Source of the DNA: an archaeon
Lineage (GTDB): Archaea > Nanobdellota > Nanobdellia > SCGC-AAA011-G17 > GW2011-AR17
Length of the DNA stretch: 64,000 nucleotides
Reading direction: 5' to 3'
Assembly: GCA_043814545.1 (NCBI GenBank)
Contig: JBDRJY010000014.1
Location: 7,617-71,616 of the forward strand
The notes under the pieces are model-generated. The model had not been told where the DNA came from. It searched no databases and saw nothing but the letters and a program-made list of their open reading frames with translations. The position numbers were made by a program, and so were the translations under genes. Shown here in pieces: positions 1,067 through 40,200 of the stretch (positions are counted from its first letter, which is position 1; every line of letters starts with the position of its first letter).

Positions 1067-2398
1067 ATGAAAAAATTAATTTTGATTGGTTTACTTGTAA
1101 TACTTTGTGCAAGCATGGTTGCAGCGAACCAAATTGTTTATACAAGAGCAGACGAATTACGGATTGATTTGGTAAGTTACAATCCGTCGCCAGTACAACC
1201 AGGGGAAAAATCTAAACTAATGTTTGAATTAGTTAACCTTGATGAAGAAGCGTTAACAGATTTAACAATAACATTGATTGAAGATTTTCCGTTCTTTTTA
1301 GAAACAGGGGCAGATGCTGTGTTTGACTTTGATACTCTTGGTCCTGGTGAAAAAGAAAGTTTTTCGTTTCCTATCGTTGCAAACAGTAACATTGACGACG
1401 GTTTTTATACATTAAGGTTACAGTTTTATTCATCTAAAACTAACCAAATCACAAGTGAACCGTTCACAATTTATGTTCAAAAAGCTAATCGTGTTATTAG
1501 TCCGACTTCTGTTCAGGTTACATCTGTTGTAGAAGACGACGCAGGAAATTTTTACCCTGGCGAAGCTTCACAGGTTGTTGTCCATGTTCAAAACTTTGCA
1601 GCTTATCACATGAAAGATGTTTCAGTTAAATTAAACTTGACTGACTCGGCGATACCGTTCGCACCATACGGCTCAACGTCTGAGAAAAACATTCAAAGTG
1701 TTGGCATTGGCGAAGGCTACGATGTAGTGTTTGATATAATAGCGTTACCTGACGCAGAGTCAGGCATTTACAAAGTGCCTTTAACATTAGTTTATTATGA
1801 TGATCAAGGCACTAAGTATACTAAAGATAATTTGATAGGTTTAGTTATTGCAGCTATACCAGAATTACATTTTGAAATTAAAGATAACGAAATTTATTCA
1901 AAGCATGGTATGGGCGAAATTACTGTTGATATTATTAACATAGGGTTAACTAATCTTAAGTTTGTCACTGTGCAACTTAACGAACCTCTATTAGAATCAA
2001 GAGGAATTTTTGGTTATACAATTAAGGAATGGCCAGAGTTTAAACTGCTTTCAGAAGATAAAATTTATTTGGGAGATATTGAACCTGACGATGGTGAAAG
2101 CGTAGATTTCAAACTTAACTTAAAATCTAAGGACGACTTTATAACTTTACCTCTGACATTGACTTACCTTGACGCAAACAACAACGAGTATACTGAAAAT
2201 GTTGAACTTGAAGTTGAGATCTATAGTATGAAAGAGCTAGGCTTGGACAACGGTTCGTCATGGTTCACTATATTTATCTTAATTGTGTTAGCAGTTTACG
2301 CGTTTGGGTTTTGGCGATGGAGAAAAAAACATCCTAGGAAAGGTTTGTTGCAATATACAAAATTTTTATTTTCCTTTTTAGCAAGAAAAAATGATTAA
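1067..2398 (+). CDS. Secreted/surface protein with N-terminal signal peptide and C-terminal TM anchor plus basic tail (extracytoplasmic partner of the MacB-type ABC system)
   Basis: Hydrophobic N-terminus. The C-terminal segment WFTIFILIVLAVYAFGFWRWRKKHPRK is a TM anchor with a basic tail. The start abuts the ATPase stop and the end overlaps the permease start (ATGATTAA). Confidence 0.55.
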   Translation: MKKLILIGLLVILCASMVAANQIVYTRADELRIDLVSYNPSPVQPGEKSKLMFELVNLDEEALTDLTITLIEDFPFFLETGADAVFDFDTLGPGEKESFSFPIVANSNIDDGFYTLRLQFYSSKTNQITSEPFTIYVQKANRVISPTSVQVTSVVEDDAGNFYPGEASQVVVHVQNFAAYHMKDVSVKLNLTDSAIPFAPYGSTSEKNIQSVGIGEGYDVVFDIIALPDAESGIYKVPLTLVYYDDQGTKYTKDNLIGLVIAAIPELHFEIKDNEIYSKHGMGEITVDIINIGLTNLKFVTVQLNEPLLESRGIFGYTIKEWPEFKLLSEDKIYLGDIEPDDGESVDFKLNLKSKDDFITLPLTLTYLDANNNEYTENVELEVEIYSMKELGLDNGSSWFTIFILIVLAVYAFGFWRWRKKHPRKGLLQYTKFLFSFLARKND

Positions 2399-3599
2399 GG
2401 ATTACCTAGCATTTGCAATAAAGAGTATATTAAACCGGAAGCTACGTTCTTGGCTTACTGTAATAGGTATTTTTATTGGTATAGCAACAGTAGTAGCATT
2501 AATTTCGATTGGGCAAGGTATGGAATCTGCAATTAACGAAGAATTTGAAAAGTTAGGAACTAACAAAATTATTGTTTCGCCAACAGGCAGTTTTGTGGTA
2601 GGCATTGAATCTGCACGACCCCTCACTACAAAAGATGTAGAAGTTATTGAAGATGTTAAAGGTGTCGACGTAGTCGCAGGCATGATAGCCAGGACAGCCC
2701 AAGTTGAGTTTAAGAACGAAGTTAAGTACACTACTGTTTCAGGCATGCCAACTGATGAAGGTTATGAAGTTATGGAAGATATTCAATCTTTTACTATTGG
2801 TTCAGGTAGGGAAATTGAGGAAGGTGACACTTATGATGCAATGGTGGGTTATATTTTTGCAGAAGAATTGTTTGACAACGAACTTTCTGTTCGAGACAAA
2901 TTTTATATTGAAGGTCAAAAGTTTCAAGTTATTGGTATCATGGACAAGATTGGGAACCCTGAGGATGATAAACAAGTTATAATCCCTCTTGAGATTGCCC
3001 GTGAATTGTTTAACGAACCTGACAATGTTATGGCTATCATGATTAAGGTTAAAGAAGGTGAAGAACCTAGCGAAGTCGCTGAACGAATTGAAGAAGAGTT
3101 AAGAGATTCTCGGGACGAGGAAGAAGGCGAGGAAAGTTTTGCAGTACAAACCTTTGAAGATATTTTGAAACAAGTAGGCGTAGTGTTAAACATTATTAGC
3201 GCAGTTTTGATTGCAATCGCAGCAATTTCGTTATTGGTAGGTGGCATTGGCATTATGAATACAATGTACACTTCTGTATTAGAACGTACTAAAGAGATTG
3301 GCATAATGAAATCTTTAGGCGCAAAAAACTCTGATGTTTTACTTATATTCATGTTAGAGTCGGGAATTTATGGTTTAGTCGGTGGTACGATAGGTATCCT
3401 TACTGGTGTTTTGCTTAGTGTTGCAGTATCTCAAATAGCAGTTGCTGCCTTAGGAGTAGAATATTTCAGGGCAGATGTTAGCATTTGGTTGGTTTTGGGT
3501 GCATTAAGTTTTTCTTTTGTAGTAGGTTGTGCTTCAGGTGTGTTACCTGCGCGACAAGCTTCAAAGTTAAAACCTGTTGACGCTTTACGTTATGAGTAA
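2391..3599 (+). CDS. ABC transporter permease, FtsX/MacB family (MacB periplasmic domain plus C-terminal 4-TM FtsX domain)
   Basis: N-terminal TM, a large extracytoplasmic domain, and the C-terminal segment ...GGIGIMNTMYTSVLERTKEIGIMKSLGA... typical of FtsX-like permeases. Confidence 0.8.
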   Translation: MIKDYLAFAIKSILNRKLRSWLTVIGIFIGIATVVALISIGQGMESAINEEFEKLGTNKIIVSPTGSFVVGIESARPLTTKDVEVIEDVKGVDVVAGMIARTAQVEFKNEVKYTTVSGMPTDEGYEVMEDIQSFTIGSGREIEEGDTYDAMVGYIFAEELFDNELSVRDKFYIEGQKFQVIGIMDKIGNPEDDKQVIIPLEIARELFNEPDNVMAIMIKVKEGEEPSEVAERIEEELRDSRDEEEGEESFAVQTFEDILKQVGVVLNIISAVLIAIAAISLLVGGIGIMNTMYTSVLERTKEIGIMKSLGAKNSDVLLIFMLESGIYGLVGGTIGILTGVLLSVAVSQIAVAALGVEYFRADVSIWLVLGALSFSFVVGCASGVLPARQASKLKPVDALRYE

Positions 3600-3635
3600 A
3601 CCTTTTAAACCATGAGTTTATTCAATTTTTATATT

Positions 3636-3718
3636 GCCGAGGTCGCATAATCTGGTATTGCACCAGCCTGGAAAGCTGGACCCTCCGGGGTGTCTGGGTT
3701 CAAATCCCAGCCTCGGCG
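3636..3718 (+). tRNA. tRNA-Ser (anticodon GGA), class II with long variable arm
   Basis: GCCGAGG acceptor pairs with CCTCGGC. The anticodon stem CCAGC/GCTGG carries the loop CTGGAAA. The variable arm is CCCTCCGGGG and the T-arm is CTGGGTTCAAATCCCAG. Total length is 83 nt. Confidence 0.85.
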
Positions 3719-3779
3719 TATTCTTCTAATAATTAAAAAAATAGAAAAAGATATAAATCTTATATTAAAAGTCTTGTAT

Positions 3780-4604
3780 ATGGAAGAAGTGTTAATTGCT
3801 AATAGTAAAGAATTTGAAAATAAAATAGAAGAAATAAAGAAAGACGGGGCTAAATCAATTCAAGTCGTTTCAGATTTTGATAAAACTTTGACAAAAGCTT
3901 TTATTGATGGTAAAAAAATCATGAGTTCTTATGCAATCTTAAGGGAAAATAAATATTTAGGCGAGGAATATTCTGCCAAGGCTTTCGCATTATTTGATGA
4001 ATATCATCCTTATGAACTTTCAACAGAATTAACATTTGAAGAAAAAAAACAGAAAATGGACGAATGGTGGAGCAAACATTTAGAACTCATGATAAAAAGC
4101 GGAATTAATAAAGAAATATTTAAGGAGATTGCGGATAAAGATCATGTAAAGGTAAGGGAAGGTCTAAATAAATTCATAGAAATACTAAATAAAAATAACA
4201 TTCCTTTTTTAATATTTTCAGCAGGATTGGGGGATGTTATCAAAGAAGTGTTAAGAGTAAAAGGTTTTTTAAAACAAAATGTAAACATTATTGCTAATTT
4301 TTTTAAGTTTAATGGGCAAGGTAATGTTATTGGTTATGATCAAGATATAGTTCATGTTTTTAATAAGAATACCATCGAACATGATGAAGATATTCCCGAA
4401 AGAAAAAATGTAATTTTATTAGGTGATAATATTGACGATTTAGGTATGGTTGAAGGAATAAGTTATGACACTATAATAAAAATTGGTTTTTTAAATGAAA
4501 AAATTGAAGAAAGGAAAAAAGAATATTTAAAACATTTTGATATAATTATTGTTAATGATGGAAGTTTTAATAAAATCAATGAAATTTTTGAAAAAATAAT
4601 CTGA
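3780..4604 (+). CDS. HAD-superfamily pyrimidine 5'-nucleotidase-like protein (cN-III / UMPH-1 family)
   Basis: The start was moved to the ATG at 3780, because the tracked ORF start at 3690 overlaps tRNA-Ser. The VVSDFDKTLT motif I (DxDxT) and overall similarity resemble cytosolic 5'-nucleotidase III. Confidence 0.5.
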   Translation: MEEVLIANSKEFENKIEEIKKDGAKSIQVVSDFDKTLTKAFIDGKKIMSSYAILRENKYLGEEYSAKAFALFDEYHPYELSTELTFEEKKQKMDEWWSKHLELMIKSGINKEIFKEIADKDHVKVREGLNKFIEILNKNNIPFLIFSAGLGDVIKEVLRVKGFLKQNVNIIANFFKFNGQGNVIGYDQDIVHVFNKNTIEHDEDIPERKNVILLGDNIDDLGMVEGISYDTIIKIGFLNEKIEERKKEYLKHFDIIIVNDGSFNKINEIFEKII

Positions 4605-14646: not shown

Positions 14647-16578
14647 ATGAAAAAGGGTGTGATTTGGATATTCTTTTTAGTTATATTTTCACAATTAGTA
14701 CTTGCTCTGGACACTAAAACAAAATCTTTAGGTGGTTTTCTTGGTTCTTTGTTTACTGACATAGGTTCTTTGTTTATTGATTTGTTAAATTTACTTTTTG
14801 GTACAAGCGAATATAGTATATTATTTTTGAAATTGATGTTGGTTATAATAATTGCAACAGCGTTGTATCGGCCTGCGTTAAACATTTTTCAGCATCAGAA
14901 GGTTTCACTTTTGATAACAATTCTTATAGGTTTTATTGGAGTAAGGTTCATGCCTGAGTCTACTATTACATTTTTAGGCAGATATATTATGATTGCCGTT
15001 ATTGCAGCGTTACCTTGGTTTCTTGGTAGATTCTTTTTACCGTCGGGCTGGCCGCAAACAATTTTTATAATTGCATCTTATGGAGTTATGGCATATTTTC
15101 TTTTGAACTTTAGTAGTTATTCAGGTTACTTGCCTGAATTGGGAAAAGTAGGTGGTGGCGCAGAAATATTTACTGATTTGGTTTACATGTTTGAACATTA
15201 TGCTTTATTTATTATAATTTTGTTTGTGATTATTGCTGTAATTGCATTATTTATTCGGTTTAGGGATCCTACAAGTCGTCGAAGTTGGTGGCGTCGAAGG
15301 GGAAGTGGTGATGCTGATGGTAACGGTCCGGATGGTGCAGGCTCTGATGGTGCTACTCCAGATGGTAGACCAAGTCGAAGTAGAAGTCGAAGCATTTTAA
15401 GTTACTTGTTTGTTTTAGCATTGGCAGCATTAGGCGCATTCTTTGTTTTTTCAGGTAATTATTATTGGGCTGGTGCAGTCGCATTAGCTTTAGTTGCATA
15501 TTTCCTTTTAACTTCCGGGAGACCATATGCGCAAAGGTCAAGGGCGGGTGCAAGAAGACATTGGTGGAAATGGGTTTTAGGAATTTTGATACTTTTAGGA
15601 GCATATTTTACTGTAGTTCAAGGCCAATATTGGTTAACAGTTGTTTTGCTTACAGTCTTACTTTTGATTTACTGGTTAGGAAAACCTAAACCAGGAGTAC
15701 GCGCTGTAGTTCCTTATAGTTGGGGTCAAAGAATTTGGGCTTTGATTTTTGGTTTTGGTATAGCTTTTGCTTTAACATATTTTGGGATAATTTATTTTGG
15801 ATATTTATATGGAATTTTGGCAGGTGCAGGTTGGGTGTTAATTTTATTTATTTATTATGTTATTAGGGGAAGAACAGGTTTCAGAACAATTACAGCTACG
15901 AGAGCACATCTCCGTACACGTTGGCTATGGTGGATTTTAACACCTTTAACATTAGCAGGTTCTGTTCTTTTAACAATATACATTGGATGGTGGGCTGGCG
16001 CAATTGGTTTAGGACTTTTAATTTTAATTTGGTTATCTACTTCACCTAAAGCAAGTACAGCAAGAGGACATGTTGGTACAGCTGGCACACATTTACGCTC
16101 ACGTTGGCTTTGGTACCTTGCCGGTATTATAACTTTAGTCGCATCTTTTGCAGTAACTTATTACATTGGATGGTGGGCAGGTGCAATTGGTTTAGGACTT
16201 TTAATTTTAATTTGGTTATTTTCTTCATCTAGAACAAGTGCTGGCGCAGTTAGAGGTCATTTCCATGCACGTTGGCTATGGTGGATAGTAGGATTTGTAA
16301 CATTAATTACAGCATTTTCATTGACTTATTTTGTACATTGGACATTTGGTGTTGCCGGTTTAGCTCTTTTGATAGTAATTTGGTTCATGATATCTTCAAG
16401 AGAGGGTGTACGCAGTGCTAGAACTCACAGCCAAGGACATTTATTATTCATTATTTTTGCAATAATTATGATTATTTTAACAGTTATAAATTTCATGGTT
16501 CCTGATCCGATACCTTGGATCGACGAAATATTAATGGTAGGGTTAGACATTTATTTGATAATCAAAGGTATAGACTAA
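14647..16578 (+). CDS. Large polytopic membrane protein built from tandem two-helix Trp-rich repeats with Arg/His-rich loops; function unknown
   Basis: 643 aa and almost entirely hydrophobic. It contains at least 5 consecutive units of about 56-61 aa of the form RxRWLWW...TL...YIGWWAGAIGLGLLILIWL...RGH. A Gly/Asp/Pro/Ser/Arg low-complexity linker (RRSWWRRRGSGDADGNGPDGAGSDGATPDGRPSRSRSRS) is also present. Confidence 0.7.
   Translation: MKKGVIWIFFLVIFSQLVLALDTKTKSLGGFLGSLFTDIGSLFIDLLNLLFGTSEYSILFLKLMLVIIIATALYRPALNIFQHQKVSLLITILIGFIGVRFMPESTITFLGRYIMIAVIAALPWFLGRFFLPSGWPQTIFIIASYGVMAYFLLNFSSYSGYLPELGKVGGGAEIFTDLVYMFEHYALFIIILFVIIAVIALFIRFRDPTSRRSWWRRRGSGDADGNGPDGAGSDGATPDGRPSRSRSRSILSYLFVLALAALGAFFVFSGNYYWAGAVALALVAYFLLTSGRPYAQRSRAGARRHWWKWVLGILILLGAYFTVVQGQYWLTVVLLTVLLLIYWLGKPKPGVRAVVPYSWGQRIWALIFGFGIAFALTYFGIIYFGYLYGILAGAGWVLILFIYYVIRGRTGFRTITATRAHLRTRWLWWILTPLTLAGSVLLTIYIGWWAGAIGLGLLILIWLSTSPKASTARGHVGTAGTHLRSRWLWYLAGIITLVASFAVTYYIGWWAGAIGLGLLILIWLFSSSRTSAGAVRGHFHARWLWWIVGFVTLITAFSLTYFVHWTFGVAGLALLIVIWFMISSREGVRSARTHSQGHLLFIIFAIIMIILTVINFMVPDPIPWIDEILMVGLDIYLIIKGID
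15919..16440 (+). repeat. Intragenic tandem DNA repeat: three units of about 170-180 bp (15919-16101, 16102-16269, 16270-about 16440), each beginning CGTTGGCT(A/T)TGGT
   Basis: Visible by eye: units 1 and 2 share long identical runs (e.g. ...tacattggatggtgggc(a/t)gg(c/t)gcaattggtttaggacttttaattttaatttggtta...). Unit 3 is more divergent. Two further degenerate units lie upstream at the protein level. Confidence 0.65.
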
Positions 16579-16624
16579 ACAATTGATAACAATTATATAG
16601 TAATTCTCTCTTACTTTTTATTTA

Positions 16625-18556
16625 ATGAGCCTTCAGATATTATTAAAAAAAATTCAAGTGCACCACGATAAAGCGGATTTAGATTTGATTCGTAAAGCTT
16701 CTCGCTGGTCGGAAAAATATCATAAAGGTCAAAAGCGTGCATCTGGTGTAAGTTATTATCGGCACCCTTTAGCAGTTGCAAAAATTCTAGCAGATTTAAG
16801 GTTAGGCCCAATCACTATCGCTAGTGCTTTGTTGCATGATTTAGTTGAAGACACTGATGTTACTTTGAAAGATATTCGTAAAGAGTTTGGTGATGAGATA
16901 GGTAATATTATTGAAGGTTTGACAAAGATAGATAAATTAAGTGTTAAAGATCGTACTGAATATCATGCTGAAAGTATTCGTAAAGTAATGCTGGCTTCTG
17001 TTCAAGACATAAGAGTAATTTTCATTAAACTTGCTGATAAGTTACATAATATGCGTACTGTAGATGTTTTCCGTCCAGAAAAACGTAAACGTATTGCTAA
17101 AGAAGTTTTAGAAATTTATGCGCCTATTGCTTACAAGTTAGGTATAGCAACAATAAAATGGGAGCTTGAAGATTTAGCGTTTAGGCAGATTGAGCCAGAG
17201 ATTTATGAAGAACTTGCATTTAAAATTAAAAAAACTTCTAAGCAACGTGAAAAAGATTTACAACATATATCCGAAATTGTTAAAGAACTTTTAGAACAAA
17301 ATGGTATTCAAGTAAAAGTTTGTGGAAGACCAAAACACATTTACAGTATTTACAAAAAAATGTTACGTAAAAATTGTCGATTTTCAGAGATATATGATTT
17401 AACTGCATTACGTATCATAACAAAATCTGTTAAAGACTGTTATACTATTGTGGGTTTGTTACATAATAAATGGCGACCAGTACCAAAAGAGTTTGACGAT
17501 TACATTGCAATGCCTAAACCTAACATGTACCAGTCTTTGCACACTGTTGTTATCATTCCAGACGGTATTCCTGTCGAGATTCAAATTAGGACAACTGAAA
17601 TGGATCGTGTTGCTGAGGAAGGTATAGCTGCTCACTGGCGGTACAAAGGTGTTCATGGCGATGAAGATTTTGACACAAAGTTAAGTTGGATGCGACAAAT
17701 TTTGGACTGGCAACGCGAATCTAAAGACGCTAAAGAATTTATGGAAATGTTGCATATGGATTTTTTTGAAGACGAAATATTTTCTTTTACTCCTCAGGGG
17801 GATGTAGTTTCTTTACCTAAAGGCGCATGTGTTATTGATTTTGCTTATTCAATACATACTAATGTTGGCGATACTGCAATGGGGGGCAAAGTTAACGGAA
17901 AGTTTGTCCCTTTACGTACTGTTTTAAAAAATGGAGATATGGTAGAAGTTGTTACAGCTAAAAACCAAAAACCTTCCCGAGAATGGTTAAAGTTTGCAAA
18001 ATCTTCAAAAGCTAAAACTAAAATTCGACAATCTGTTGAACATTACGGAAAAATACCTGCAAGGGCTTTACAGAAAGTTAAAGAAGAAAAAAAAGAATTA
18101 GCAAAATGGATTATTAAAGTTGAAGGCATACGTGATCCGAACATAAACATTTCTAAATGTTGTTTACCTTTACCTGGCGACAAGATTGTTGGTTATGCTA
18201 CAGCATCTGACAAAGTAGCTATACACAAATTTGATTGTAAAAATATTAATAAAGTTAGTCGCGGTTCACGAAAAAAACCAGTAAAAGTAATTTGGATAGA
18301 CCGGATAGGGTCGGAAGTTAAATTAAAGGTTGACGCTGTTAATAGGGTAGGTTTGTTTGCAGAAATTCTTAATACTTTGGTTGCTAAGAAAACCAAAATT
18401 AAATCTGCTAATGCAAAACTTATTACTGGTAATATTGTAGAATGTTCTATCAACATAGAAATTGAAAGCCTGGGCCATTTACAAGATTTAATTAGAAGGA
18501 TAAATAAAATTAAAGATGTTAAGAAAGTTTTTATTGGAAATTTAATAGAAAAATAA
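16625..18556 (+). CDS. Bifunctional (p)ppGpp synthetase/hydrolase, long RelA/SpoT homolog (HD hydrolase + synthetase + TGS + ACT)
   Basis: HD motif HPLAVAKILADLRLGPITIASALLHDLVEDT. Synthetase core IYSIYKKM...RIITKSVKDCYTIVGLLHNKWRPVPKEFDDYIAMPKPNMYQSLHTVV. TGS region FTPQGDVVSLPKGACVIDFAYSIHTNVG. An ACT-like domain sits at the C-terminus. Confidence 0.85.
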   Translation: MSLQILLKKIQVHHDKADLDLIRKASRWSEKYHKGQKRASGVSYYRHPLAVAKILADLRLGPITIASALLHDLVEDTDVTLKDIRKEFGDEIGNIIEGLTKIDKLSVKDRTEYHAESIRKVMLASVQDIRVIFIKLADKLHNMRTVDVFRPEKRKRIAKEVLEIYAPIAYKLGIATIKWELEDLAFRQIEPEIYEELAFKIKKTSKQREKDLQHISEIVKELLEQNGIQVKVCGRPKHIYSIYKKMLRKNCRFSEIYDLTALRIITKSVKDCYTIVGLLHNKWRPVPKEFDDYIAMPKPNMYQSLHTVVIIPDGIPVEIQIRTTEMDRVAEEGIAAHWRYKGVHGDEDFDTKLSWMRQILDWQRESKDAKEFMEMLHMDFFEDEIFSFTPQGDVVSLPKGACVIDFAYSIHTNVGDTAMGGKVNGKFVPLRTVLKNGDMVEVVTAKNQKPSREWLKFAKSSKAKTKIRQSVEHYGKIPARALQKVKEEKKELAKWIIKVEGIRDPNINISKCCLPLPGDKIVGYATASDKVAIHKFDCKNINKVSRGSRKKPVKVIWIDRIGSEVKLKVDAVNRVGLFAEILNTLVAKKTKIKSANAKLITGNIVECSINIEIESLGHLQDLIRRINKIKDVKKVFIGNLIEK

Positions 18557-18563
18557 AAAAAAA

Positions 18564-19505
18564 TTAAGCTGATAATTCAGCATCAATAATTTCTTGGAAC
18601 GCACTCAACGGTTGTGCACCTACCAACGATATTCCGTTAATGAAAAATGCTGGCGTGCCAGAAACACCGTTACTTTGACCAATACCCATTTGTGCTGAAA
18701 CTGTATCAGCCATAGTATCTTCGTCAAGACAAGTGTTAAACGCTTCAGTGTCTAATCTCAATGCTTCAGCAGAAGATTTCAAACTGTCGACATCCAATGC
18801 ACCTTGGTCAGCAAACAATACATCATGGTATTCCCAGAACATTCCTTGCTCGTTTGCACAAAGTGAAGCTTCAGCAGCTTTCTGCGCATTAGCGTGGAAA
18901 CTTAACGGGAATTGCATGAAGACTACTCCAACTTCGTCATAAGCTTCAAGGACTTCCTCAATTGTTGTTGCACCTCTTGCACAGTATGGACATTCAAAGT
19001 CTGAAAATTCTATAATCAGAACTTCGCCGTCAGGGTTACCTCTTACAGTTAAACCAGTTGTATCAATTTCAACACGTTCAACTTCAGTAGGTTCAGTCTC
19101 GTCAGGGATATTAATGCCATTTGTCGTGTCTAAGACTGTCGGCATAAGCATTTTTCCATCTTTTGTAACATAAGATGTAAACTCTTTGCCACTAACAGTA
19201 ATTTTTAGTTTGTACATTCCGTATTCTTCGCTTACATCATTCAATTCTGCTTCAGCTAATCCACCTAACAAATTAATGTTAATATAATCCATTGTATCTT
19301 CTATAATTTGATCCTGGCTACCACTTGGTAAGGAAAAGGATCCGCCTAACACTACTGAGAAGACCAATAAAACTAATAATACACCTGTAGCAATTTGCCA
19401 TGGTAAAGCGTTTTTTGCAGAACGTAAAAATTTAACTTTATTTTTATGTTCTTTTAGAACTTCGTTTTTATGTTCACTCATATATTTCGCCTCCAATATA
19501 AACAA
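18564..19505 (-). CDS. Membrane-anchored thiol:disulfide oxidoreductase, DsbA-like thioredoxin fold, with N-terminal extracytoplasmic domain
   Basis: N-terminal TM. The FSDFECPYCARG CxxC active site sits in a DsbA-like context. Confidence 0.7.
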   Translation of the reverse strand: MFILEAKYMSEHKNEVLKEHKNKVKFLRSAKNALPWQIATGVLLVLLVFSVVLGGSFSLPSGSQDQIIEDTMDYININLLGGLAEAELNDVSEEYGMYKLKITVSGKEFTSYVTKDGKMLMPTVLDTTNGINIPDETEPTEVERVEIDTTGLTVRGNPDGEVLIIEFSDFECPYCARGATTIEEVLEAYDEVGVVFMQFPLSFHANAQKAAEASLCANEQGMFWEYHDVLFADQGALDVDSLKSSAEALRLDTEAFNTCLDEDTMADTVSAQMGIGQSNGVSGTPAFFINGISLVGAQPLSAFQEIIDAELSA

Positions 19506-22036: not shown

Positions 22037-22741
22037 ATGAAAAGGGGCCAGGCTACTTTATTAATTCTATTCGGTTTAATTGTAGTTGTTCTGTTGGTTA
22101 GTACATATTATTTATTTTATCAAGTTGATGTTGTTGAAGAAGTTACTCAAACCATTGTTGAAACTGAACAACAGGAAGAAATTTTTTTAGAATTGGAAAA
22201 TTGTATTGAATTAGTTGTAGTGGATTCTTTGATTCAGATTGGCGAAAATGGTGGCCTTTATAACGAAATGAATTATTTAGCTAATGAAGGTATTAATAAC
22301 GTTCCTGACGAAACGGAATTAAATGAAGAATTTTTAGAATTTTTTGAAACTTATGTTCCATACTGTTTATACTACGTGGATTACCAAGATTATGAAATTG
22401 AAAGTGGCGATGTTAAATCCGATGTTACCCTAACTGACAATAGTGTTAAGTTAGAGATAACTTATCCTTTACAATTAACAGGAGAAAACTCGTTTAGTAT
22501 TGCTGAACCGTTTTACTACGAATATGATATTCCGTTAAAAACTTACCTTGATGTTGCTAACGAAATTGTGAATGAATATTTGGTTAATAATAGAATGTGT
22601 CTAAGCTGTATTTCAACTATTGGCACAGAAAACGATTTAAACATTAATATGTTGTTCGAGGAAGAAGGACAACTTATCATAATTGAAGATGAAAATGTCG
22701 ACTTTAGCGAGGGGGTGTACTATTTTGCGTTTATGGTTTAG
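22037..22741 (+). CDS. Type IV pilin-like protein with archaeal class III signal peptide (paralog of 42145-42897)
   Basis: N-terminus MKRGQ|ATLLILFGLIVVVLLV has a K/R-G-Q motif directly preceding a hydrophobic helix. There is clear full-length similarity to the 42145-42897 product, e.g. ...NRMCLSCISTIGTENDLNINMLFEEEG versus ...NKLCVSCITDITLDYNLEINFENLDEG. Confidence 0.55.
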   Translation: MKRGQATLLILFGLIVVVLLVSTYYLFYQVDVVEEVTQTIVETEQQEEIFLELENCIELVVVDSLIQIGENGGLYNEMNYLANEGINNVPDETELNEEFLEFFETYVPYCLYYVDYQDYEIESGDVKSDVTLTDNSVKLEITYPLQLTGENSFSIAEPFYYEYDIPLKTYLDVANEIVNEYLVNNRMCLSCISTIGTENDLNINMLFEEEGQLIIIEDENVDFSEGVYYFAFMV

Positions 22742-24707
22742 CTTTTTGCTTTTATTATTAATCGTCCCAGGGGTTTTTGCTGCTGAGTGTGACTTGGAAG
22801 AGTACGAGTATCAAGGCGAACTGGTTATGCGTTGCAATGTTAATGAAAATATTGAAATCTTAGGCAACGGGATATACCTTTCACCTGACGATACAGAAGT
22901 AAGAACAACTGGTAGTTACCCTTTCACGTTTCGTTTGTCTGAATCTATTCAAACTGAAGAAGGTTTTGAAATAGATGTAACAACTGTTGAAACAGAATGG
23001 GTTAAAGGAAATATTGGCGAAGACGGTATTTTTCAGGGTATATCTTTAGCCGACACTTTTATTTCTGATTATAACCTTCCAGAAAATTTTGAGTTTAGTT
23101 ATTATGTTGTTGATGACATATTTGAAATTGAACACTTTGATACGTTTGAAGGTTATGAGTACGAAGGCCATACGTTAAACATTGCTGAAGATGGGGTTAT
23201 AAAAATTCAAAATGTTGGCGGCGAATGGTTAATTTCTGGCTACAATTTTATGATTGACGACGTTCTTGTTAAAAGTTATAACTCTGCAACTTATGATGGG
23301 GTTAACGACAAATTTCTTTTTGATTTAGGCGGAGATTTTGAATATGCAGGAATAGATTTTTCGTCAGGGCAAGAATTTCAATTATTATCTTATGAAATTG
23401 ATGGTGTAAGCAGGGAAGATTTTCTTTATAATTTTTACCAGGGAGAACTTTTTACGAACGAAAACGATTATTTAATGTTATTAAATGAAGAAATCTCTCA
23501 AACAGAAATTGTACCTTTCATTTTAAACGGTGAAGGTTTAACTTTTGATGTTACATCAGACTCTCTTTTGTTTAACTTTGATGACCGAAACGATTATTTT
23601 AAGGGTGCTTTATCACAAGGTTCATTATTTTTTGAAGATTTAGGGACAGCACATGTTTACGGTAACGCAGAAATCCAAAACGGTCCGTACAAAACTTATT
23701 TTTATGAGGAAGGACGAACAGAAATGGAACTTCTGCAACGACCAGGTTATAATGTTTACAAAACCGGTTACGACATTGTCCCATTAAGTTTAGGTTATGT
23801 TAACGAAGATGGTTATGTTGAAGAAATTTTATACAAAGAATCTACTGCAAGTAGAGGGGTAGACAGTTTAACTGTTTCAACAGCTGAATTTTATGTTGGT
23901 GAAGATTACGTAACAGACGTTTCTGTAGAAACACTTTTAACGGAACCAGAAATTTCGACAGCGTTCTTAACTGATGAATCTTTTGAACCGTTGGAAGGTG
24001 AAGAACCAGAAGTAAGTTGTTTAGGTTTAAGTTTTGACGAATGCCTTTACAATCCGAAAGGCCACGGTTGTTTTTGGTCCGGCGGTTGTACAGAATGTAA
24101 TGTAATAATGTGCGAGATGTATAGTTCTCAGGAAGAATGTGTGAGAGACCCTTGTGGTTTTAACGATATCAGTTCAAAATGTTCGTTTGAAGGTGCGTGT
24201 ATGTCGGTAGATAGGATAGAAGATACTGTTGCAGCATCAGAGATTTTAGCTGTGGCAAATATATACAAGGAAGCTAGTGTCCATTACAGTCAAGGTAATT
24301 GGTTAATGGAAGAGCCAGAAGTGAACGGTTTAGATTGTTCAGGCTTTGCGCAAAAACCTTGGCACGAGTTGGGTGTAGCAATGCCGGCACGTGCGTCAAC
24401 ACAAGCAATGGTAACTCGGGATGATGGTACGACTGAAGTTAAAATGGAAAATTATTTTAACCATATTGAATGTAAAGATTTAAAACCTGCTGACATGCTA
24501 ATTTACCGTCCTAAACCAGGTGTTGAAAGGGATGGTCATGTAGTTTTGGTCAAAGAAAGTTATGGTAACAGTGGCGCAGTGATTATACATTCTAAAGGTG
24601 GAACAGGTGTTACTGAAGATTTTTTGATAGACGTTGAAAATGTTTATTCTCCTTTAGGGTTAGAGTTAAAGGATTGTTGGCGGCATAAGAGCGTTGTTTA
24701 TGAATAA
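22683..24707 (+). CDS. Large secreted Cys-rich protein with C-terminal NlpC/P60 cysteine peptidase domain
   Basis: Signal peptide present; an alternative in-frame TTG start at 22725 gives MRLWFSFLLLLLIVPGVFA|AEC. The C-terminus has NGLDCSGF (catalytic Cys), ...ADMLIYRP...DGHVVLV...AVIIHSKG (His triad region) and a Cys-rich linker. Overlaps the upstream pilin-like gene. Confidence 0.7.
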   Translation: MKMKMSTLARGCTILRLWFSFLLLLLIVPGVFAAECDLEEYEYQGELVMRCNVNENIEILGNGIYLSPDDTEVRTTGSYPFTFRLSESIQTEEGFEIDVTTVETEWVKGNIGEDGIFQGISLADTFISDYNLPENFEFSYYVVDDIFEIEHFDTFEGYEYEGHTLNIAEDGVIKIQNVGGEWLISGYNFMIDDVLVKSYNSATYDGVNDKFLFDLGGDFEYAGIDFSSGQEFQLLSYEIDGVSREDFLYNFYQGELFTNENDYLMLLNEEISQTEIVPFILNGEGLTFDVTSDSLLFNFDDRNDYFKGALSQGSLFFEDLGTAHVYGNAEIQNGPYKTYFYEEGRTEMELLQRPGYNVYKTGYDIVPLSLGYVNEDGYVEEILYKESTASRGVDSLTVSTAEFYVGEDYVTDVSVETLLTEPEISTAFLTDESFEPLEGEEPEVSCLGLSFDECLYNPKGHGCFWSGGCTECNVIMCEMYSSQEECVRDPCGFNDISSKCSFEGACMSVDRIEDTVAASEILAVANIYKEASVHYSQGNWLMEEPEVNGLDCSGFAQKPWHELGVAMPARASTQAMVTRDDGTTEVKMENYFNHIECKDLKPADMLIYRPKPGVERDGHVVLVKESYGNSGAVIIHSKGGTGVTEDFLIDVENVYSPLGLELKDCWRHKSVVYE

Positions 24708-26266: not shown

Positions 26267-26642
26267 TTTTAAAATTTATTTGTAATTTCCCTTCATATTC
26301 TCCATATGCTGCACTTTCAGGCACTGAAATTGAAACTTCGACAATTTTATTTTCATTTGGCATCATAACAAAATTATTTTCGGGTAATACAACCCAATGT
26401 TTTAATTTGCCTTTAGCCTTTAAATTAACATAAGAAATTTGATTAGAATTAGTAATGTTAACCATTCTAGTTCCAATACCTGCAGGTGTAATTGCCCCAA
26501 AATAAAGTGCATCATTATCAACATTAAATCCCGTATAATTTGCAACTGTTAAATACATGCCAATCTCATGATTTGGCGTATCTAAGGTAAGAAAAAAAAC
26601 TAAAGACGCAATTAAAATAACTAATATCAATTTAGCTTTCAT
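26259..26642 (-). CDS. Small secreted protein (signal peptide)
   Basis: Likely start is the MKAKLILVILIASLVFF Met within the tracked ORF 26259-26681. Tightly packed in the operon. Confidence 0.4.
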   Translation of the reverse strand: MKAKLILVILIASLVFFLTLDTPNHEIGMYLTVANYTGFNVDNDALYFGAITPAGIGTRMVNITNSNQISYVNLKAKGKLKHWVVLPENNFVMMPNENKIVEVSISVPESAAYGEYEGKLQINFKNG

Positions 26643-27762
26643 TTTTACGCCTCTTAAGCATTCTGTATACAAAAATTGCAATGATTATAATTAAAACTCC
26701 AATTATTACTAAATTCCAGGAGAAAATATTTCTTTTAACTTGAATTGGAATGTTTGTTTCCATTGATTTATCTGCAAAATATAAAGTTGTGTGTAAAATA
26801 TAATCACCTACATTAACATTAGTCGTATCCCAATAAGCGTTAAGATTTTTTTCTAATAAGGGCTTAAGTTCAATAGATTCAGTTTTTATTATCCCAATTT
26901 CTTGATTATTATCTAAGATTTGCAGTTCAGCATAAACATCTGTAATTTTTTCATTCCATAAACTTTTTAACGAAATTTCAATTTTATTAATTGTATTTAC
27001 TTGAAAGGCTGTAGGAACAATCTTGAGGATTTCAATAAGCAAATCTCCAATTTGGAAACTTTTTTCTGTTTCAATACTTTCTTCATCAAAATAAACTTTA
27101 GCTTTTACGATATATTCACCGGCGCTTAGATCTGTAGGTGTCCATTTTGTCGAAATTTCACCTGATTCTTTTGTATTAATTTTTATACTGTTTGTAGTTA
27201 ATATCGCAACTTCAGTACCATTAGAATCTGTAATTCTGATTGTTGCATCAACATTATTTAAATTTTCAGTACCTAAATTTTGTACGTCAAGTGTTATTTC
27301 TGTTTCTTTATTCAAATTAGTTTTTTCAATAGAAAGTTTAGTAGAAATATATTTTCCAGGGTAAGGGACAAGAATAAGAAACTGTGATTCTACGCCTGTA
27401 ACTGCTCCTACACCGCCTAAGTTTTCTGGAATAGCTTCTACAACACCTATTCTTGTATCATAAATTCCTGGTTTTTCAATGTTTTCAGGCAAATTAACTT
27501 CTACCACAAAACTTTTAATTTCGTTTTCGTTAAGCGTTGTTGAAGTTTCAGAAAGACTCACATATCCAGCTAACTCTCCTTTTGTATACATCTGAACAGT
27601 TGTCGGATTTTCTCTATTAATTATATTGTAAGTATATGTAGAATCTAAGTTTGGTTCAAAATTAACAGTGACGCGGCTGGGACTAATCCCTATAGCTAAT
27701 CCGCTTTTTGTAACTAATAAAATCAAAATTCCGAAGATTATAATTTTAATTATTTTGTTCAT
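26632..27762 (-). CDS. Cell-surface protein with CARDB/DUF11-like beta-sandwich repeats, signal peptide and C-terminal TM anchor with basic tail
   Basis: Signal peptide present. Repeated ...QNLGTENLNNVDATIRITDSNG... NxG-type motifs. C-terminal VIIGVLIIIIAIFVYRMLKRRKNES. Confidence 0.5.
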   Translation of the reverse strand: MNKIIKIIIFGILILLVTKSGLAIGISPSRVTVNFEPNLDSTYTYNIINRENPTTVQMYTKGELAGYVSLSETSTTLNENEIKSFVVEVNLPENIEKPGIYDTRIGVVEAIPENLGGVGAVTGVESQFLILVPYPGKYISTKLSIEKTNLNKETEITLDVQNLGTENLNNVDATIRITDSNGTEVAILTTNSIKINTKESGEISTKWTPTDLSAGEYIVKAKVYFDEESIETEKSFQIGDLLIEILKIVPTAFQVNTINKIEISLKSLWNEKITDVYAELQILDNNQEIGIIKTESIELKPLLEKNLNAYWDTTNVNVGDYILHTTLYFADKSMETNIPIQVKRNIFSWNLVIIGVLIIIIAIFVYRMLKRRKNES

Positions 27763-29694: not shown

Positions 29695-30846
29695 TCACCT
29701 TTTCTTTCTTAGTAGGACAATAAGGAGGATTAGTGTTATTAAAAGTAGCCCGCTTGATGCAATCAAAGCTACCACTATCCAATCTTGGTTTTCAAAAATA
29801 AGATTATTTCCTTGATATTCCTCAACCTTGACTTCAAATTCACTTACTGTTTCTATCTCATCATAAGACAATTTTATTTTCAAAGTATAATTGCCAGGCA
29901 TTATATCATTTAAATCTAAACTTAAAGACAAATCTTTTTCACTAATAGCATTAAAAATAAATGAGTTAAGATTTGTTTTTGTTATCAAAGAAGATTCATC
30001 ATATAACCCAACTTCAATTTCAACATCTAAATCTTCAATCCAATAATTAAATGTTTTTAACGTAATAGTATTGATAACTTGACTATTTAATTTTTTTGGT
30101 ACGAGATCTAAAATTTCAATTTCTTTTTTTGCAATAATAAAATTTGCAATGTTTGAGGAACTTTCTTCCTTATCGTATTCTGTATATAAAACTAAATTAT
30201 AAAGGCCCAGATCCATAGCAGTTGTATCGGTTGACACTAATACGGATTCACTTGAATCAGGAAATAAATAATTCAAAGATTCAATTTCAACTTTTTTATT
30301 AAAACCTTCATCATTTGTTATTTGAAAATAACCGTCTACTGTGTTAATAACTTCTGTACCTATGTTACTGATTGTAGCTTTTAGTTCTGCAAAATCTCCT
30401 ACATTTTCAATTACCACTTCATCTATTTCTATTTTCAAAAATTTATCCGGATAAGGTGCATTAGTTGTAATAGGTATTTTCAGCGCTACAGTTGCGCCGA
30501 TATCTCCACTTGATCCAAATGGGACTAGATAAAATTTAATTAAAGCAATCTGCACGTCCCCAAATTCATTAAGTTCAGGTATAGTTAAACTGAAATCTAC
30601 ATCTTCACTTTCATAAGCTCCAACAAGAATTTTATCTGATGGAAAATTAAAGTATTCTTCATAATCGCTTTCAAGGGTAATTTCAATTATACTTTCTACT
30701 GCTAATTCATTTGTAACTGTTAGCGTAAACTCTTCTATTTCTCCTGGAGCATATCCTATGTTTATTTTTGCAGGATTAATTAACAGTGCATTTACAGAAA
30801 TAGATAAAATGGCTAAAAATAATATTATTATAATAATTTTTTTCAT
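29695..30846 (-). CDS. Cell-surface protein with CARDB/DUF11-like repeats, signal peptide and C-terminal TM anchor with basic tail
   Basis: Signal peptide present. ISNIGTEVINTVDGYFQITNDEG NxG motifs. C-terminal IVVALIASSGLLLITLILLIVLLRKKR. Confidence 0.5.
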   Translation of the reverse strand: MKKIIIIILFLAILSISVNALLINPAKINIGYAPGEIEEFTLTVTNELAVESIIEITLESDYEEYFNFPSDKILVGAYESEDVDFSLTIPELNEFGDVQIALIKFYLVPFGSSGDIGATVALKIPITTNAPYPDKFLKIEIDEVVIENVGDFAELKATISNIGTEVINTVDGYFQITNDEGFNKKVEIESLNYLFPDSSESVLVSTDTTAMDLGLYNLVLYTEYDKEESSSNIANFIIAKKEIEILDLVPKKLNSQVINTITLKTFNYWIEDLDVEIEVGLYDESSLITKTNLNSFIFNAISEKDLSLSLDLNDIMPGNYTLKIKLSYDEIETVSEFEVKVEEYQGNNLIFENQDWIVVALIASSGLLLITLILLIVLLRKKR

Positions 30847-36041: not shown

Positions 36042-37721
36042 ATGTGGTTTAAAAAAAAGCTTAACAGTATGAAACGGTTAAAACAAATTGTTGAAGTTTT
36101 ATTTTCTAAAGAATTAGGTTTTGTAATTGAACGTTTAAAGCTTAAAACCCATCTTACATTATCAAAAAAGATCCAGCAAAGTAAGTTTAAGAATAAACCG
36201 AAATCCATGTCTATAACATTACGGCAAGTCATGGAAGAGTTAGGTGCAACTTTTGTTAAACTGGGACAATTGTTAAGTTTAAGGACGGATTTTTTGCCGA
36301 AAGAATATTGTGAAGAGTTTGCAAAGTTACAGGACGACGTTTTGCCGTTTGAATATTCTCAAGTAAAAAAAATTGTTGAAAAAGAGTTTGGCAAACCAAT
36401 AATAAAAATATTTAAAGAATTTGAAAAAATTCCTATTGCTTCAGCTTCAGTAGGTCAAGTCCATAGAGCTAAATTAAAAAATGGTAAAGTTGTAGCAGTA
36501 AAAGTTCAAAGGCCAGGCATACAAAATACATTTCAGACGGATATTGAACTTTTATTTGAGTTGGCAAAGTTAGCTGAAAATTATATGGATGAGTTAAAAC
36601 AGTATGATTTGAAAAATATTGTTGAAGAGTTTGAACGTTATACGAGGAAAGAGTTAGATTATAAGCTTGAAGGTAAAAACATTGACACATTTTACGCAGT
36701 TTATAAATATAATAAATATATCAAGATTCCAAAAGTATATTGGGATTATACGACGTCAAAAGTTCTTACAATGGAATTTATGGAAGGCGTTAAGATTAGC
36801 GAAATTAAAAGTTTTGAAAAATTAAAAAGTAATAGAAAAACAATTTGTAAATTATTAACACAAGCTTTCATTGTGCAAACATTAGAGTATGGTGTGTTCC
36901 ACGCCGACCCACATCCTGGCAATATTTTCGTACAAAAGAATAACCAGATTGCGTTATTAGATTTTGGTATCATTGGCAGGTTAACTCCTGACATGAAAGA
37001 ATCTTTAGGAAAAATCTTTATAGGTTTAATTAAACACGACCTTGACACTTTAACCCAGGGCTTTTTAGACGTAGGCATGGTTGAAGGTGATATTGATATT
37101 AAACGGTTTAAGGAAGACCTTTACGAAAGTTTATCCTATTATTATAACATTTCTTTAAAACAAACTAATATGGGTAATTTCTTTTATGATGTTTTCGCAT
37201 TAGCAAGAAGGTATAACATGAAATTTCCAACTAATTTCGTTTTACTGATTAAAGCTATGGTTACGACGGAAGGTTTTTGTAAAAAATTAGATCCAAACTT
37301 TAACTTTGTCCAAGTTTCAAGAAGTTATGCTGAAGATTTGGTAAGTAAACGTAAAGCGCCTGGTTATTTGTTAAAATCAGTTAAAAGAACAGCTTTAGGG
37401 TTCAAGGATGTTATGCAAAATCTGCCACAAGATATACGTAAAATTACAACGATGATCCAGAAAGGTACGTTAGTTAATGTTGACATTAACAATGAAGATA
37501 TTAAACGTTTTACAATTGAAATGGACAGGTCTAGCAATAGGTTAACATTTGGTTTGATTATTGCAGCTTTGATTGTAGCAGCATCGTTAATAACTTTAAC
37601 AAATATGCCCCCATTTTTGTTAGGCTTACCATTTCTATCATGGTTTGCTTTAGGATTGGTAGGTATTTTATCATTATTATTAATTTTTTCCATATTACGG
37701 GAAAATAAAGGAGGTGAATAA
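36042..37721 (+). CDS. UbiB/ABC1 (aarF domain) atypical protein kinase with C-terminal TM segments
   Basis: LGATFVKLGQLLSLRTDFLP, IASASVGQVHRAKL and FHADPHPGNIFV are present. C-terminal hydrophobic helices. Confidence 0.8.
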   Translation: MWFKKKLNSMKRLKQIVEVLFSKELGFVIERLKLKTHLTLSKKIQQSKFKNKPKSMSITLRQVMEELGATFVKLGQLLSLRTDFLPKEYCEEFAKLQDDVLPFEYSQVKKIVEKEFGKPIIKIFKEFEKIPIASASVGQVHRAKLKNGKVVAVKVQRPGIQNTFQTDIELLFELAKLAENYMDELKQYDLKNIVEEFERYTRKELDYKLEGKNIDTFYAVYKYNKYIKIPKVYWDYTTSKVLTMEFMEGVKISEIKSFEKLKSNRKTICKLLTQAFIVQTLEYGVFHADPHPGNIFVQKNNQIALLDFGIIGRLTPDMKESLGKIFIGLIKHDLDTLTQGFLDVGMVEGDIDIKRFKEDLYESLSYYYNISLKQTNMGNFFYDVFALARRYNMKFPTNFVLLIKAMVTTEGFCKKLDPNFNFVQVSRSYAEDLVSKRKAPGYLLKSVKRTALGFKDVMQNLPQDIRKITTMIQKGTLVNVDINNEDIKRFTIEMDRSSNRLTFGLIIAALIVAASLITLTNMPPFLLGLPFLSWFALGLVGILSLLLIFSILRENKGGE

Positions 37722-39162: not shown

Positions 39163-40200
39163 ATGCGTTACATAATATTATTACTTTTATTGATGCCAGG
39201 AGTTACAGCTAGTTTAACAATCAATGAAATCATGCCTAACCCGATAGGTGCAGACAATGCACCACAACCAAGAGGGGAATGGGTCGAATTATATAATCCA
39301 ACATCTGAAAAAATATATTTAGAAGATTATTATTTAACAGATTTAATAGAATATCATAAGTTAGAGATTTTAGAGGAATACATAGAACCTTACCAATATC
39401 TAACTATTTATCGAGATGAAGACGGCGATTTTGCATTAAACAATAATGGTGATGAAGTTAAACTATTTCATAATAAAACCCTAATAGACAAAATGGAATA
39501 TAAAAAATCTGAACAGTCATTATCTATAGCAAAAACCGAACAAGGTTGGATGATACAAACACCTTCACTAAACAAAGAAAATTATCCTTATGATTACACA
39601 CCGCAATGCGATTGGGAATTAGAGATTTGGTTAAACGAAACAATAACCTTAGACCCTTATTTTAAAGTTAAAATAAACAACGTTTATGGCGGTAAGAACA
39701 ACCTTACATTAACGCGTACAATTTTAAATCAAAAAGAAATAGAACGTTTATACGAAAATTTAACATTTTCTATCATTACAAAAACATCTTACACTTACAA
39801 ACCTCAACTTAAACCTGGCCCTCATAGAATACAAGCAGCAATAGAATCTTTAAATTGTAATGATACAAATATGGACAATAATAAAGTAGAAACCTTGGTA
39901 TATATCCCTGAAACAGTAAATTCATTAGAAATAGTAAATTCTTTAAATACTACAGGCATAAATTATTTAAACCCTACGGGAAACATTGTTTATGAGTCAA
40001 AGGGTAGGAAAGCAAAAACTTATGCAGTTTACGCCTTTTGCGCTATAATAATAGTATTAATTGTATATTGGGGAATTAAAGATGAAATCAAAAAAAATCA
40101 TAGCACGAATCATAGTCGAAGTTCTAGGTGCACCAAAAGAACACGTCGAAAAAACAATGCAACAGATAATAGAAAATCTAAAGCAAGACAAAGATCTTAA
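39163..40200 (+). CDS. Secreted lamin-tail-domain (LTD) protein with C-terminal TM anchor
   Basis: Signal peptide present. LTINEIMPNPIGADNAPQPRGEWVELYNPTSEKIYLEDYYLTD is the LTD signature. There is a C-terminal TM VYAFCAIIIVLIVYWGI. The last roughly 40 codons are low-complexity basic and overlap the next gene, so the true stop may lie earlier, or there is a frameshift or sequencing issue. Confidence 0.5.
   Translation: MRYIILLLLLMPGVTASLTINEIMPNPIGADNAPQPRGEWVELYNPTSEKIYLEDYYLTDLIEYHKLEILEEYIEPYQYLTIYRDEDGDFALNNNGDEVKLFHNKTLIDKMEYKKSEQSLSIAKTEQGWMIQTPSLNKENYPYDYTPQCDWELEIWLNETITLDPYFKVKINNVYGGKNNLTLTRTILNQKEIERLYENLTFSIITKTSYTYKPQLKPGPHRIQAAIESLNCNDTNMDNNKVETLVYIPETVNSLEIVNSLNTTGINYLNPTGNIVYESKGRKAKTYAVYAFCAIIIVLIVYWGIKDEIKKNHSTNHSRSSRCTKRTRRKNNATDNRKSKARQRS

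Follow-up and report, generated by a model that had tools for sequence, protein, structure and literature searches.

A putative bifunctional Rel-type (p)ppGpp synthetase/hydrolase with a reduced Helical domain in a DPANN archaeon

A long RelA/SpoT homolog (RSH) is encoded at 16625..18556 on the plus strand of the window, by which we mean the whole stretch of 64,000 nucleotides (nt) of contig JBDRJY010000014.1 that was analyzed. Its open reading frame runs uninterrupted from ATG to TAA (the coordinates include the stop codon) and encodes a protein of 643 amino acids (aa) that is 100% identical to NCBI MFH1456043.1, deposited as a bifunctional (p)ppGpp synthetase/hydrolase. The protein scores 686 bits against the NCBIfam long-RSH model TIGR00691 spoT_relA, above the cutoff of 499.2, and is thus a member of that family, but remains below the cutoffs of the equivalog models for SpoT (NF008303, 558 bits against 947) and for monofunctional RelA (NF008124, 434 bits against 728). 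The latter score and the intact HD motif place it outside the RelA class.

All domains are read from the plus strand. The hydrolase (HD) domain occupies residues 25-174 (16697..17146; Pfam HD_4, E-value 1e-42; aligned to Bacillus subtilis Rel 6yxa) and is followed by the synthetase domain at residues 234-341 (17322..17647; Pfam RelA_SpoT, E-value 3e-43) and by the TGS domain at residues 386-444, which includes H411 (17778..17956; Pfam TGS, E-value 1e-21). What remains of the Helical (AH) domain lies at residues ~445-496 (17957..18112), as delimited by alignment, a census of linker lengths and a structure model. The zinc-finger domain (ZFD/RIS) with C512, C513, H534 and C538 spans residues ~497-545 (18113..18259), on the basis of alignment to the ZFD of RelA and Mycobacterium smegmatis Rel and of the precomputed PF28438 RelA_RIS match, and an ACT/RRM domain at residues 564-635 (18314..18529; Pfam ACT_4, E-value 1e-12) ends the protein. 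Direct reading of the sequence upstream of the ATG revealed no Shine-Dalgarno sequence and a TATA-like box, TTATATA, 26-32 nt 5' of the ATG (16593..16599, plus strand). A/T-rich elements occur at a similar distance in the relatives L081, L083 and L084. The box is a possible archaeal promoter that would yield a leaderless or short-leader mRNA, a weak inference in an AT-rich genome of 32% GC. An Rfam scan of the window returned two tRNAs only, with no match at the RSH locus.

The best 120 database matches to the window RSH are all 612-663 aa long and 49-92% identical to it, and several are labeled 'archaeon' or 'Candidatus...'. The 50%-identity representatives from an exhaustive search split cleanly into short forms (613-675 aa, matched in one continuous stretch) and long forms (700-800 aa, matched in two stretches), the top-scoring long form reaching 583 bits. 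At least 136 sequences form an archaeal-type clade with the window RSH.

We aligned the protein at the residue level with Rel from B. subtilis, Staphylococcus aureus and M. smegmatis and with Escherichia coli RelA, took a census of residues and linkers in 348 RSH sequences and assessed conservation within the clade from an alignment of 86 members. The HD motif reads L69-L-H71-D72-L-V-E75-D76, and alignment to solved Rel/RelA structures together with the census found all hydrolase residues present (H47, H71, D72, E75, D76, D138 and N142). The same is true of the synthetase residues G234, R235, K237 (GRPKH), D258, R263, Y302, Q303, H306, E318, Q320 and R322 (census strings GRKDR and YQHEQR). Among them, D258 corresponds to B. 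subtilis Rel D264, for which the D264G substitution serves as a synthetase-inactive control (PMC7797070). H47, H71, R235, K237, D258, R263, Y302, H306, E318, Q320 and R322 are invariant in the 86 clade sequences and the remaining catalytic residues checked are at least 90% conserved. Across the census the synthetase catalytic residues are intact in 134 of 146 short forms, and the HD motif is intact in 103 of 136 clade members. An earlier note on this DNA had called the HDLVED motif and the synthetase core intact and the enzyme plausibly bifunctional; every catalytic residue checked bears out the former, and the residues of both active sites lend support to the latter. The same note's description of the RSH as full-length holds for the HD, synthetase, TGS, ZFD/RIS and ACT/RRM domains, but not for the Helical domain, most of which is missing throughout the clade.

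In B. subtilis Rel the TGS domain extends over residues 374-469 and the Helical domain over 470-583, with the ZFD beginning at 584 (Takada et al., PMC7797070). The stretch between TGS and ZFD is only ~40 aa in the window RSH versus ~114 aa in bacterial Rel, so that the expected Helical domain of ~105-115 aa is not there, and PF19296 RelA_AH_RIS scores below threshold (18.3 bits against a cutoff of 23.8), covering profile positions 73-175 only. The window protein aligns with the first ~14 residues of the B. subtilis Helical domain and picks up again at the ZFD. Explicit alignment with RelA, M. smegmatis Rel and Bacillota Rel puts the missing block at ~75-80 aa; it holds the conserved core '...F.F...DDL.AA.GYG.L...QV..RL...', and the equivalents of B. 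subtilis Rel residues ~484-583 are mostly absent. Linker length is bimodal among the 348 RSHs: 134 sequences have 40-49 aa, ~195 have 100-139 aa and no linker of 80-99 aa occurs. In 121 of the 136 clade members it is held at 43-45 aa. The remnant is modeled as a single 15-residue helix (461-475) that leads into a low-confidence tether (478-491). Among the open-access papers searched we found none describing the clade-wide Helical truncation, the switch from RXKD to EXDD within the clade that is taken up below or selection data, and the clade-wide loss of most of the Helical domain is apparently undescribed.

Residues that in bacteria contact tRNA and ribosome are retained in the TGS domain and the zinc finger. 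H411 aligns to E. coli RelA H432 and B. subtilis Rel H420, a histidine that stacks on the 3' CCA of the deacylated A-site tRNA and whose substitution abolishes activation (PMC7797070). Of the 146 short forms, 143 have the zinc-finger CCHC residues (C512, C513, H534, C538); in RelA the ZFD and RRM bind the A-site finger of 23S rRNA, the key ribosome contact (PMC5829649). H411 and all four zinc-finger residues are invariant across the 86 clade sequences.

In the synthetase domain the charge motif reads E289-F-D-D292. It is thus of the EXDD type reported for monofunctional RelA and not of the RXKD type that marks bifunctional Rel/SpoT (Sajish et al. 2009; PMC2666561, PMC3153485). This motif is reported to determine how the enzyme responds to Mg2+, whether it prefers GDP or GTP and what influence the C-terminal region has, and pGpp is produced by a bifunctional Rel in which the motif was changed to EXDD (PMC2666561, PMC3153485). 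EFDD occurs in 77 of 146 short forms. Clade members at greater distance keep RFKD or intermediates; no EFDD subclade was resolved in our neighbor-joining (NJ) tree, and only a trend with divergence was seen.

Each of the 19 bacterial long forms that carry an acidic motif also has an intact HD domain, and those that are named belong to Chloroflexota. The combination of an intact HD domain with EXDD, considered at one point as novel, was dropped because these 19 long forms have it as well. In the Chloroflexota Rel loci L001, L006, L013, L021 and L038 an HD motif that is fully intact accompanies EFDD or QFDD, and the pairing of EXDD with monofunctional RelA is therefore not general.

An AlphaFold2 model of the window RSH has a mean predicted local distance difference test (pLDDT) score of 80. 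Its catalytic half superimposes on S. aureus Rel with pppGpp (7oiw_A) with a template-modeling (TM) score of 0.94 and a root-mean-square deviation of 1.8 Å, and the catalytic fold as modeled is canonical. Against the 92%-identical ortholog, the ratio of nonsynonymous to synonymous substitution rates (dN/dS) is 0.085 over the whole protein. The values for the separate domains are 0.09 for HD, 0.125 for the synthetase, 0.045 for TGS, 0.12 for the linker, 0.07 for the ZFD and 0.059 for ACT/RRM. The gene pair is under strong purifying selection, and the regulatory half is under constraint equal to that on the catalytic half.

The genes around the RSH are those of an archaeon. Markers in the window include an archaeal or archaeal/eukaryotic-type phenylalanyl-tRNA synthetase (PheRS; alpha subunit 503 aa, beta subunit 550 aa with a B1 domain), a TrmB regulator, an E/Q-type glutamyl-tRNA synthetase, an aIF-2B family protein and a wyosine-forming radical-SAM enzyme; an ADP-forming acyl-CoA synthetase, FtsZ and deoxyhypusine synthase were also counted. 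The adjacent valyl-tRNA synthetase (ValRS) matches 'MAG: valine--tRNA ligase [archaeon]' from the same 134,220-bp contig at 100% identity (MAG, metagenome-assembled genome), and its nearest relatives are labeled Nanoarchaeota, Woesearchaeota, Aenigmatarchaeota, Diapherotrites or 'DPANN group'. The host is an archaeon of a DPANN lineage of the Nanoarchaeota/Woesearchaeota kind.

Two further assemblies carry a 78%-identical RSH ortholog: another MAG (GCA_054040335.1), on a contig of 599 kb, and an independent Logan run assembly. Gene order in both is PheRS-beta/alpha, TrmB, ABC transporter, SPP, membrane protein, RSH and then a convergent gene, which is DsbA-like where Pfam matches; the 599-kb contig runs on into ValRS and the Logan contig stops within the convergent gene. 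In a JGI contig that carries the 92%-identical ortholog, gene order is identical to that of the window. Because these three other assemblies keep the same gene order, the contig is not chimeric. More distant clade members adjoin genes for aIF2-gamma, ribosomal protein S6e, aIF5B, Orc1/Cdc6 and RtcB on contigs of 204-841 kb. The RSH is also compositionally ameliorated in its host genome: its GC content is 0.332 (window 0.328±0.032), its GC content at third codon positions (GC3) 0.216 (window 0.234±0.034) and its codon-usage distance 4.2 (window 5.4±1.4). That the core machinery of the genome is archaeal, as had been claimed from the sequence, is confirmed by the window markers, the ValRS relatives and the three independent syntenic assemblies, and a check of the flanking genes found the contig neither bacterial nor chimeric.

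We used NJ bootstrapping to examine how the archaeal sequences group. The tested archaeal group comprised 120 archaeal sequences and the labeled Nanoarchaeota sequence L044, set against 78 named bacterial Rel and 198 long forms; the named bacterial outgroup was drawn from a species-level genome scan with at least 79 bacterial loci and at least one archaeon among the matches listed. This comparison of a verified archaeal set replaced the exact 136-member split, which was recovered in only 43/100 full-length and 2/100 catalytic-half replicates and was judged too strict. At full length the archaeal group excluded the named bacteria in 100/100 replicates and all long forms in 100/100, and with the C-terminal half it did so in 95-99/100 and 86/100, respectively. 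Its nearest neighbors in the tree are a few unnamed sequences, one of them labeled '[bacterium]', and then Bacillota Rel (Thermoanaerobacter, Syntrophomonadaceae, Clostridia, Bacilli). The tree fits a single old acquisition from bacteria with subsequent inheritance in DPANN, with Bacillota-like Rel as the nearest sampled relative and not as an assigned donor. The divergent clade members L044 (139-1980), P0144, P0157, P0252 and P0266 have a degenerate HD motif (HG, HQ, HS or NL) and intact synthetase residues; judging from these residues, RelA-like monofunctional forms seem to have arisen inside DPANN.

Li et al. 2021 (PMC8407392) inferred a bacterial origin for the RelA/SpoT genes of DPANN, which they reported from 69% of the genomes in Diapherotrites, 41.7% in Woesearchaeota, 21.3% in Pacearchaeota and 19% in Nanoarchaeota. 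Our results likewise support the bacterial ancestry proposed in the earlier note, but not its view that such acquisitions are rare or scattered: the window RSH falls within an archaeal clade that is large and monophyletic, its gene is ameliorated and RelA/SpoT has been published from four DPANN phyla. The placement of the window RSH within a known archaeal RSH clade makes it less novel, as that note itself had allowed.

Taken together, these data are best read as evidence of a functional, bifunctional Rel-type (p)ppGpp synthetase/hydrolase that was probably acquired once from bacteria by the ancestor of a large DPANN group and kept since. Our confidence in this reading blends two parts that stand differently. 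The presence of an active, long-resident Rel-type enzyme appears highly probable. Continued coupling of its sensing to ribosome and tRNA is about as likely as not.

If the enzyme works as bacterial Rel does, its C-terminal half would keep it in the hydrolase-on state, and an encounter of TGS H411 with the 3' end of a deacylated tRNA would switch it to synthesis. Sensing would most likely take place on the ribosome, with the ZFD and RRM bound near the A-site finger, and the collapsed Helical domain would act as one helix plus a flexible tether of fixed length (43-45 aa), re-fitted to the archaeal ribosome. The EFDD motif is predicted to confer a RelA-like synthetase, with GDP preference and a different Mg2+ response, beside an active hydrolase. 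The alarmone would most likely act on targets that archaea and bacteria have in common, for instance enzymes of purine salvage and the GTPases of translation and ribosome assembly. The known RNA polymerase/DksA sites for the alarmone are bacterial, so RNA polymerase is an unlikely target here. Purine salvage might be relevant because many DPANN genomes are without annotated de novo nucleotide synthesis, according to Li et al. (PMC8407392).

Several points weigh against this interpretation. [quoted passage not shown] The predicted TM (pTM) score of 0.59 leaves the inter-domain geometry of the model uncertain. The NJ trees, built on simple distances for 348 sequences with 100 bootstraps, are a limited method, and the bacterial sample is a best-scoring subset and not exhaustive. 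With the catalytic half, the archaeal group excluded the named bacteria in only 72-74/100 replicates and all long forms in 35/100.

The first of these points underlies the most serious alternative, in which the enzyme is active but uncoupled from ribosome and tRNA and is regulated like SpoT or an off-ribosome Rel, through a small ligand on ACT/RRM, a protein partner or a simple balance of product and substrate. The clade-wide absence of ~75 aa of the Helical domain, the requirement for this domain in stable, specific tRNA binding by B. subtilis TGS (PMC7797070) and the low-confidence, probably flexible residues 478-491 of the model would all suit such an enzyme. It would be harder to reconcile with the invariance of H411 and the CCHC residues, which make tRNA and ribosome contacts in bacteria, in 86 sequences, with the low dN/dS of TGS (0.045) and ZFD (0.07) or with a tether held at 43-45 aa, whose constancy points to two docking sites at a constrained distance. 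We consider this alternative unlikely, though with a real share of the probability. For our part, we read the Helical reduction as a re-fit of TGS-to-ZFD spacing to archaeal ribosome and tRNA geometry and not as decay.

It is also conceivable that the protein is mainly a hydrolase, like Mesh1 or SpoT, with a vestigial synthetase, and that it clears alarmone derived from bacterial neighbors or side reactions. The HD motif is indeed intact in the window RSH and in 103/136 clade members, and the hydrolase state predominates in bacterial Rel that is off the ribosome (PMC7797070). But the synthetase residues are intact in 134/146 short forms, the synthetase dN/dS is 0.125 and the divergent members in which one activity has decayed lost the HD motif and kept the synthetase, the opposite of the expected pattern. 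This explanation is therefore very improbable. Finally, although the great majority of the family is bacterial and the source of the window is a MAG, a bacterial contaminant, a chimeric assembly or a very recent transfer is effectively excluded by the synteny in the 599-kb MAG, Logan and JGI contigs, the archaeal contexts of distant members on contigs of up to 841 kb, GC, GC3 and codon usage within the window ranges and the monophyly of the clade.

A working, long-resident Rel with remodeled sensing thus remains the most likely reading of these sequences. A further-reaching proposal, which we advance tentatively and would expect to fail somewhat more often than to succeed, is that DPANN archaea of the Nanoarchaeota/Woesearchaeota kind run an endogenous stringent response, with a Rel of bacterial origin that has been re-engineered for the archaeal ribosome and reads deacylated tRNA. 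In this re-engineering the Helical domain would have collapsed to a tether fixed at 43-45 aa, and in one subclade RXKD would have been reversed to EXDD. If this is true, (p)ppGpp would, against the view of current reviews, be a genuine second messenger in archaea, and recognition by stringent factors would depend only on ribosomal features common to both prokaryotic domains.

Other genes of the window provide further context. The earlier note had listed bacterial-type FtsX/MacB, DsbA, Bac_transf and NlpC/P60 genes. The first three are present as bacterial-type envelope genes: a MacB/FtsX permease (2391-3599, plus strand), a Bac_transf sugar transferase (54915-55451, minus strand) and a DsbA-like thioredoxin-fold protein (18564-19505, minus strand) that is convergent with the RSH and also adjoins it in L085 and the P0075 contig. 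NlpC/P60 was seen only below threshold (20 bits against a cutoff of 23), at residues 548-623 of an otherwise unannotated 674-aa protein (22683-24707, plus strand). Immediately upstream of the RSH, by 46 nt and on the same strand, is the gene for a 643-aa polytopic membrane protein (14647-16578, plus strand) with internal repeats (R..RWLWW..) and a low-complexity stretch rich in G, D, A and P, for which no Pfam family was matched. Its counterpart is shorter in L081 (484 aa) and longer in L085 (703 aa), a variation in length among close relatives.

Between 25505 and 31426 on the minus strand, small proteins of unassigned function are mixed with WxLIP_HBD/CARDB-like putative surface proteins (26632-27762, 29695-30846). 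The GC content of these genes (0.25-0.29) is clearly under the window mean of 0.328, and they may represent a surface-protein or island-like cluster. A gene of GC 0.26 at 3690-4604 (plus strand) matches the UMPH-1 pyrimidine 5'-nucleotidase family (E-value 2e-68) from residue 66 onward. Its listed GTG start overlaps tRNA-Ser(GGA) at 3635-3719, and its true start therefore lies further in. At 60588-62551 (minus strand), the deoxyhypusine synthase gene (E-value 2e-106) adjoins one for an ornithine/arginine-type PLP (pyridoxal phosphate) decarboxylase, which looks like a compact polyamine-to-hypusine gene pair for aIF5A modification. A lamin-tail-domain protein (39163-40200, plus strand) and an ABC1/UbiB-type atypical kinase (36042-37721, plus strand; E-value 4e-83) are seemingly unusual for a small DPANN genome.

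That an archaeon can carry a long RSH is already known, the protein having been deposited and annotated and the DPANN distribution published. The reference RSH survey recorded archaea without long RSHs (PMC3153485), the available supplements of the 2019 RSH reclassification make no mention of archaea and reviews of archaeal second messengers up to 2023 describe (p)ppGpp as not found in archaea and seemingly unimportant there (PMC10249747). The value of the present gene lies in its architecture, which makes the existence of an archaeal stringent response directly testable with one clonable protein. Catalytic and tRNA-sensing residues conserved across the clade, together with purifying selection, argue that an abundant and for the most part uncultured group of archaea makes use of the alarmone. 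In addition, the clade amounts to a natural experiment on ribosome recognition, being without most of the tRNA-gripping domain and yet keeping the CCA-reading histidine and the A-site-finger zinc finger.

Among known systems, Bacillota Rel (B. subtilis 6yxa and 6htq, S. aureus 7oiw, Streptococcus equisimilis RelSeq 1vj7) has the same domain order as the window RSH, shares 43-48% structure-based identity with it and is its nearest named neighbor in the NJ tree; the phmmer match to B. subtilis Rel covers window RSH residues 17-473 (E-value 3e-152). Both have HDxxED, the synthetase residues, the TGS histidine, the CCHC zinc finger and ACT/RRM, but Bacillota Rel has a Helical domain of 114 aa and RFKD where the window RSH has ~40 aa and EFDD. 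The archaeal host also means that ribosome, tRNA modifications and downstream targets differ from those of Bacillota Rel. E. coli RelA (5iqr, 5kpv) is likewise a long RSH with EFDD, the H432 equivalent of H411 and the ZFD motif 'CC..P.PGD.I.G....H..DC', and it is the best full-length Foldseek match of the model (E-value 1.5e-38). In contrast to the window RSH, it has a dead hydrolase ('LLFPLADAN' versus 'LLHDLVEDT') and a full Helical domain. The long Rel of Chloroflexota (L001 Anaerolineae, L006 Dehalococcoidia, L038 Anaerolinea) resembles the window RSH in combining an intact HD domain with EFDD or QFDD, but has a full Helical domain (linker 102-113 aa) and lies outside the archaeal clade in the NJ tree; the acidic motif therefore probably arose independently. 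The DPANN RelA/SpoT of Li et al. 2021 belongs to the same family and superphylum, and the window RSH nests in the corresponding clade. The passages of that paper available to us provide presence/absence data and a call of horizontal gene transfer and do not mention catalytic residues, Helical truncation, EXDD or selection (PMC8407392), the features by which the window RSH is described here.

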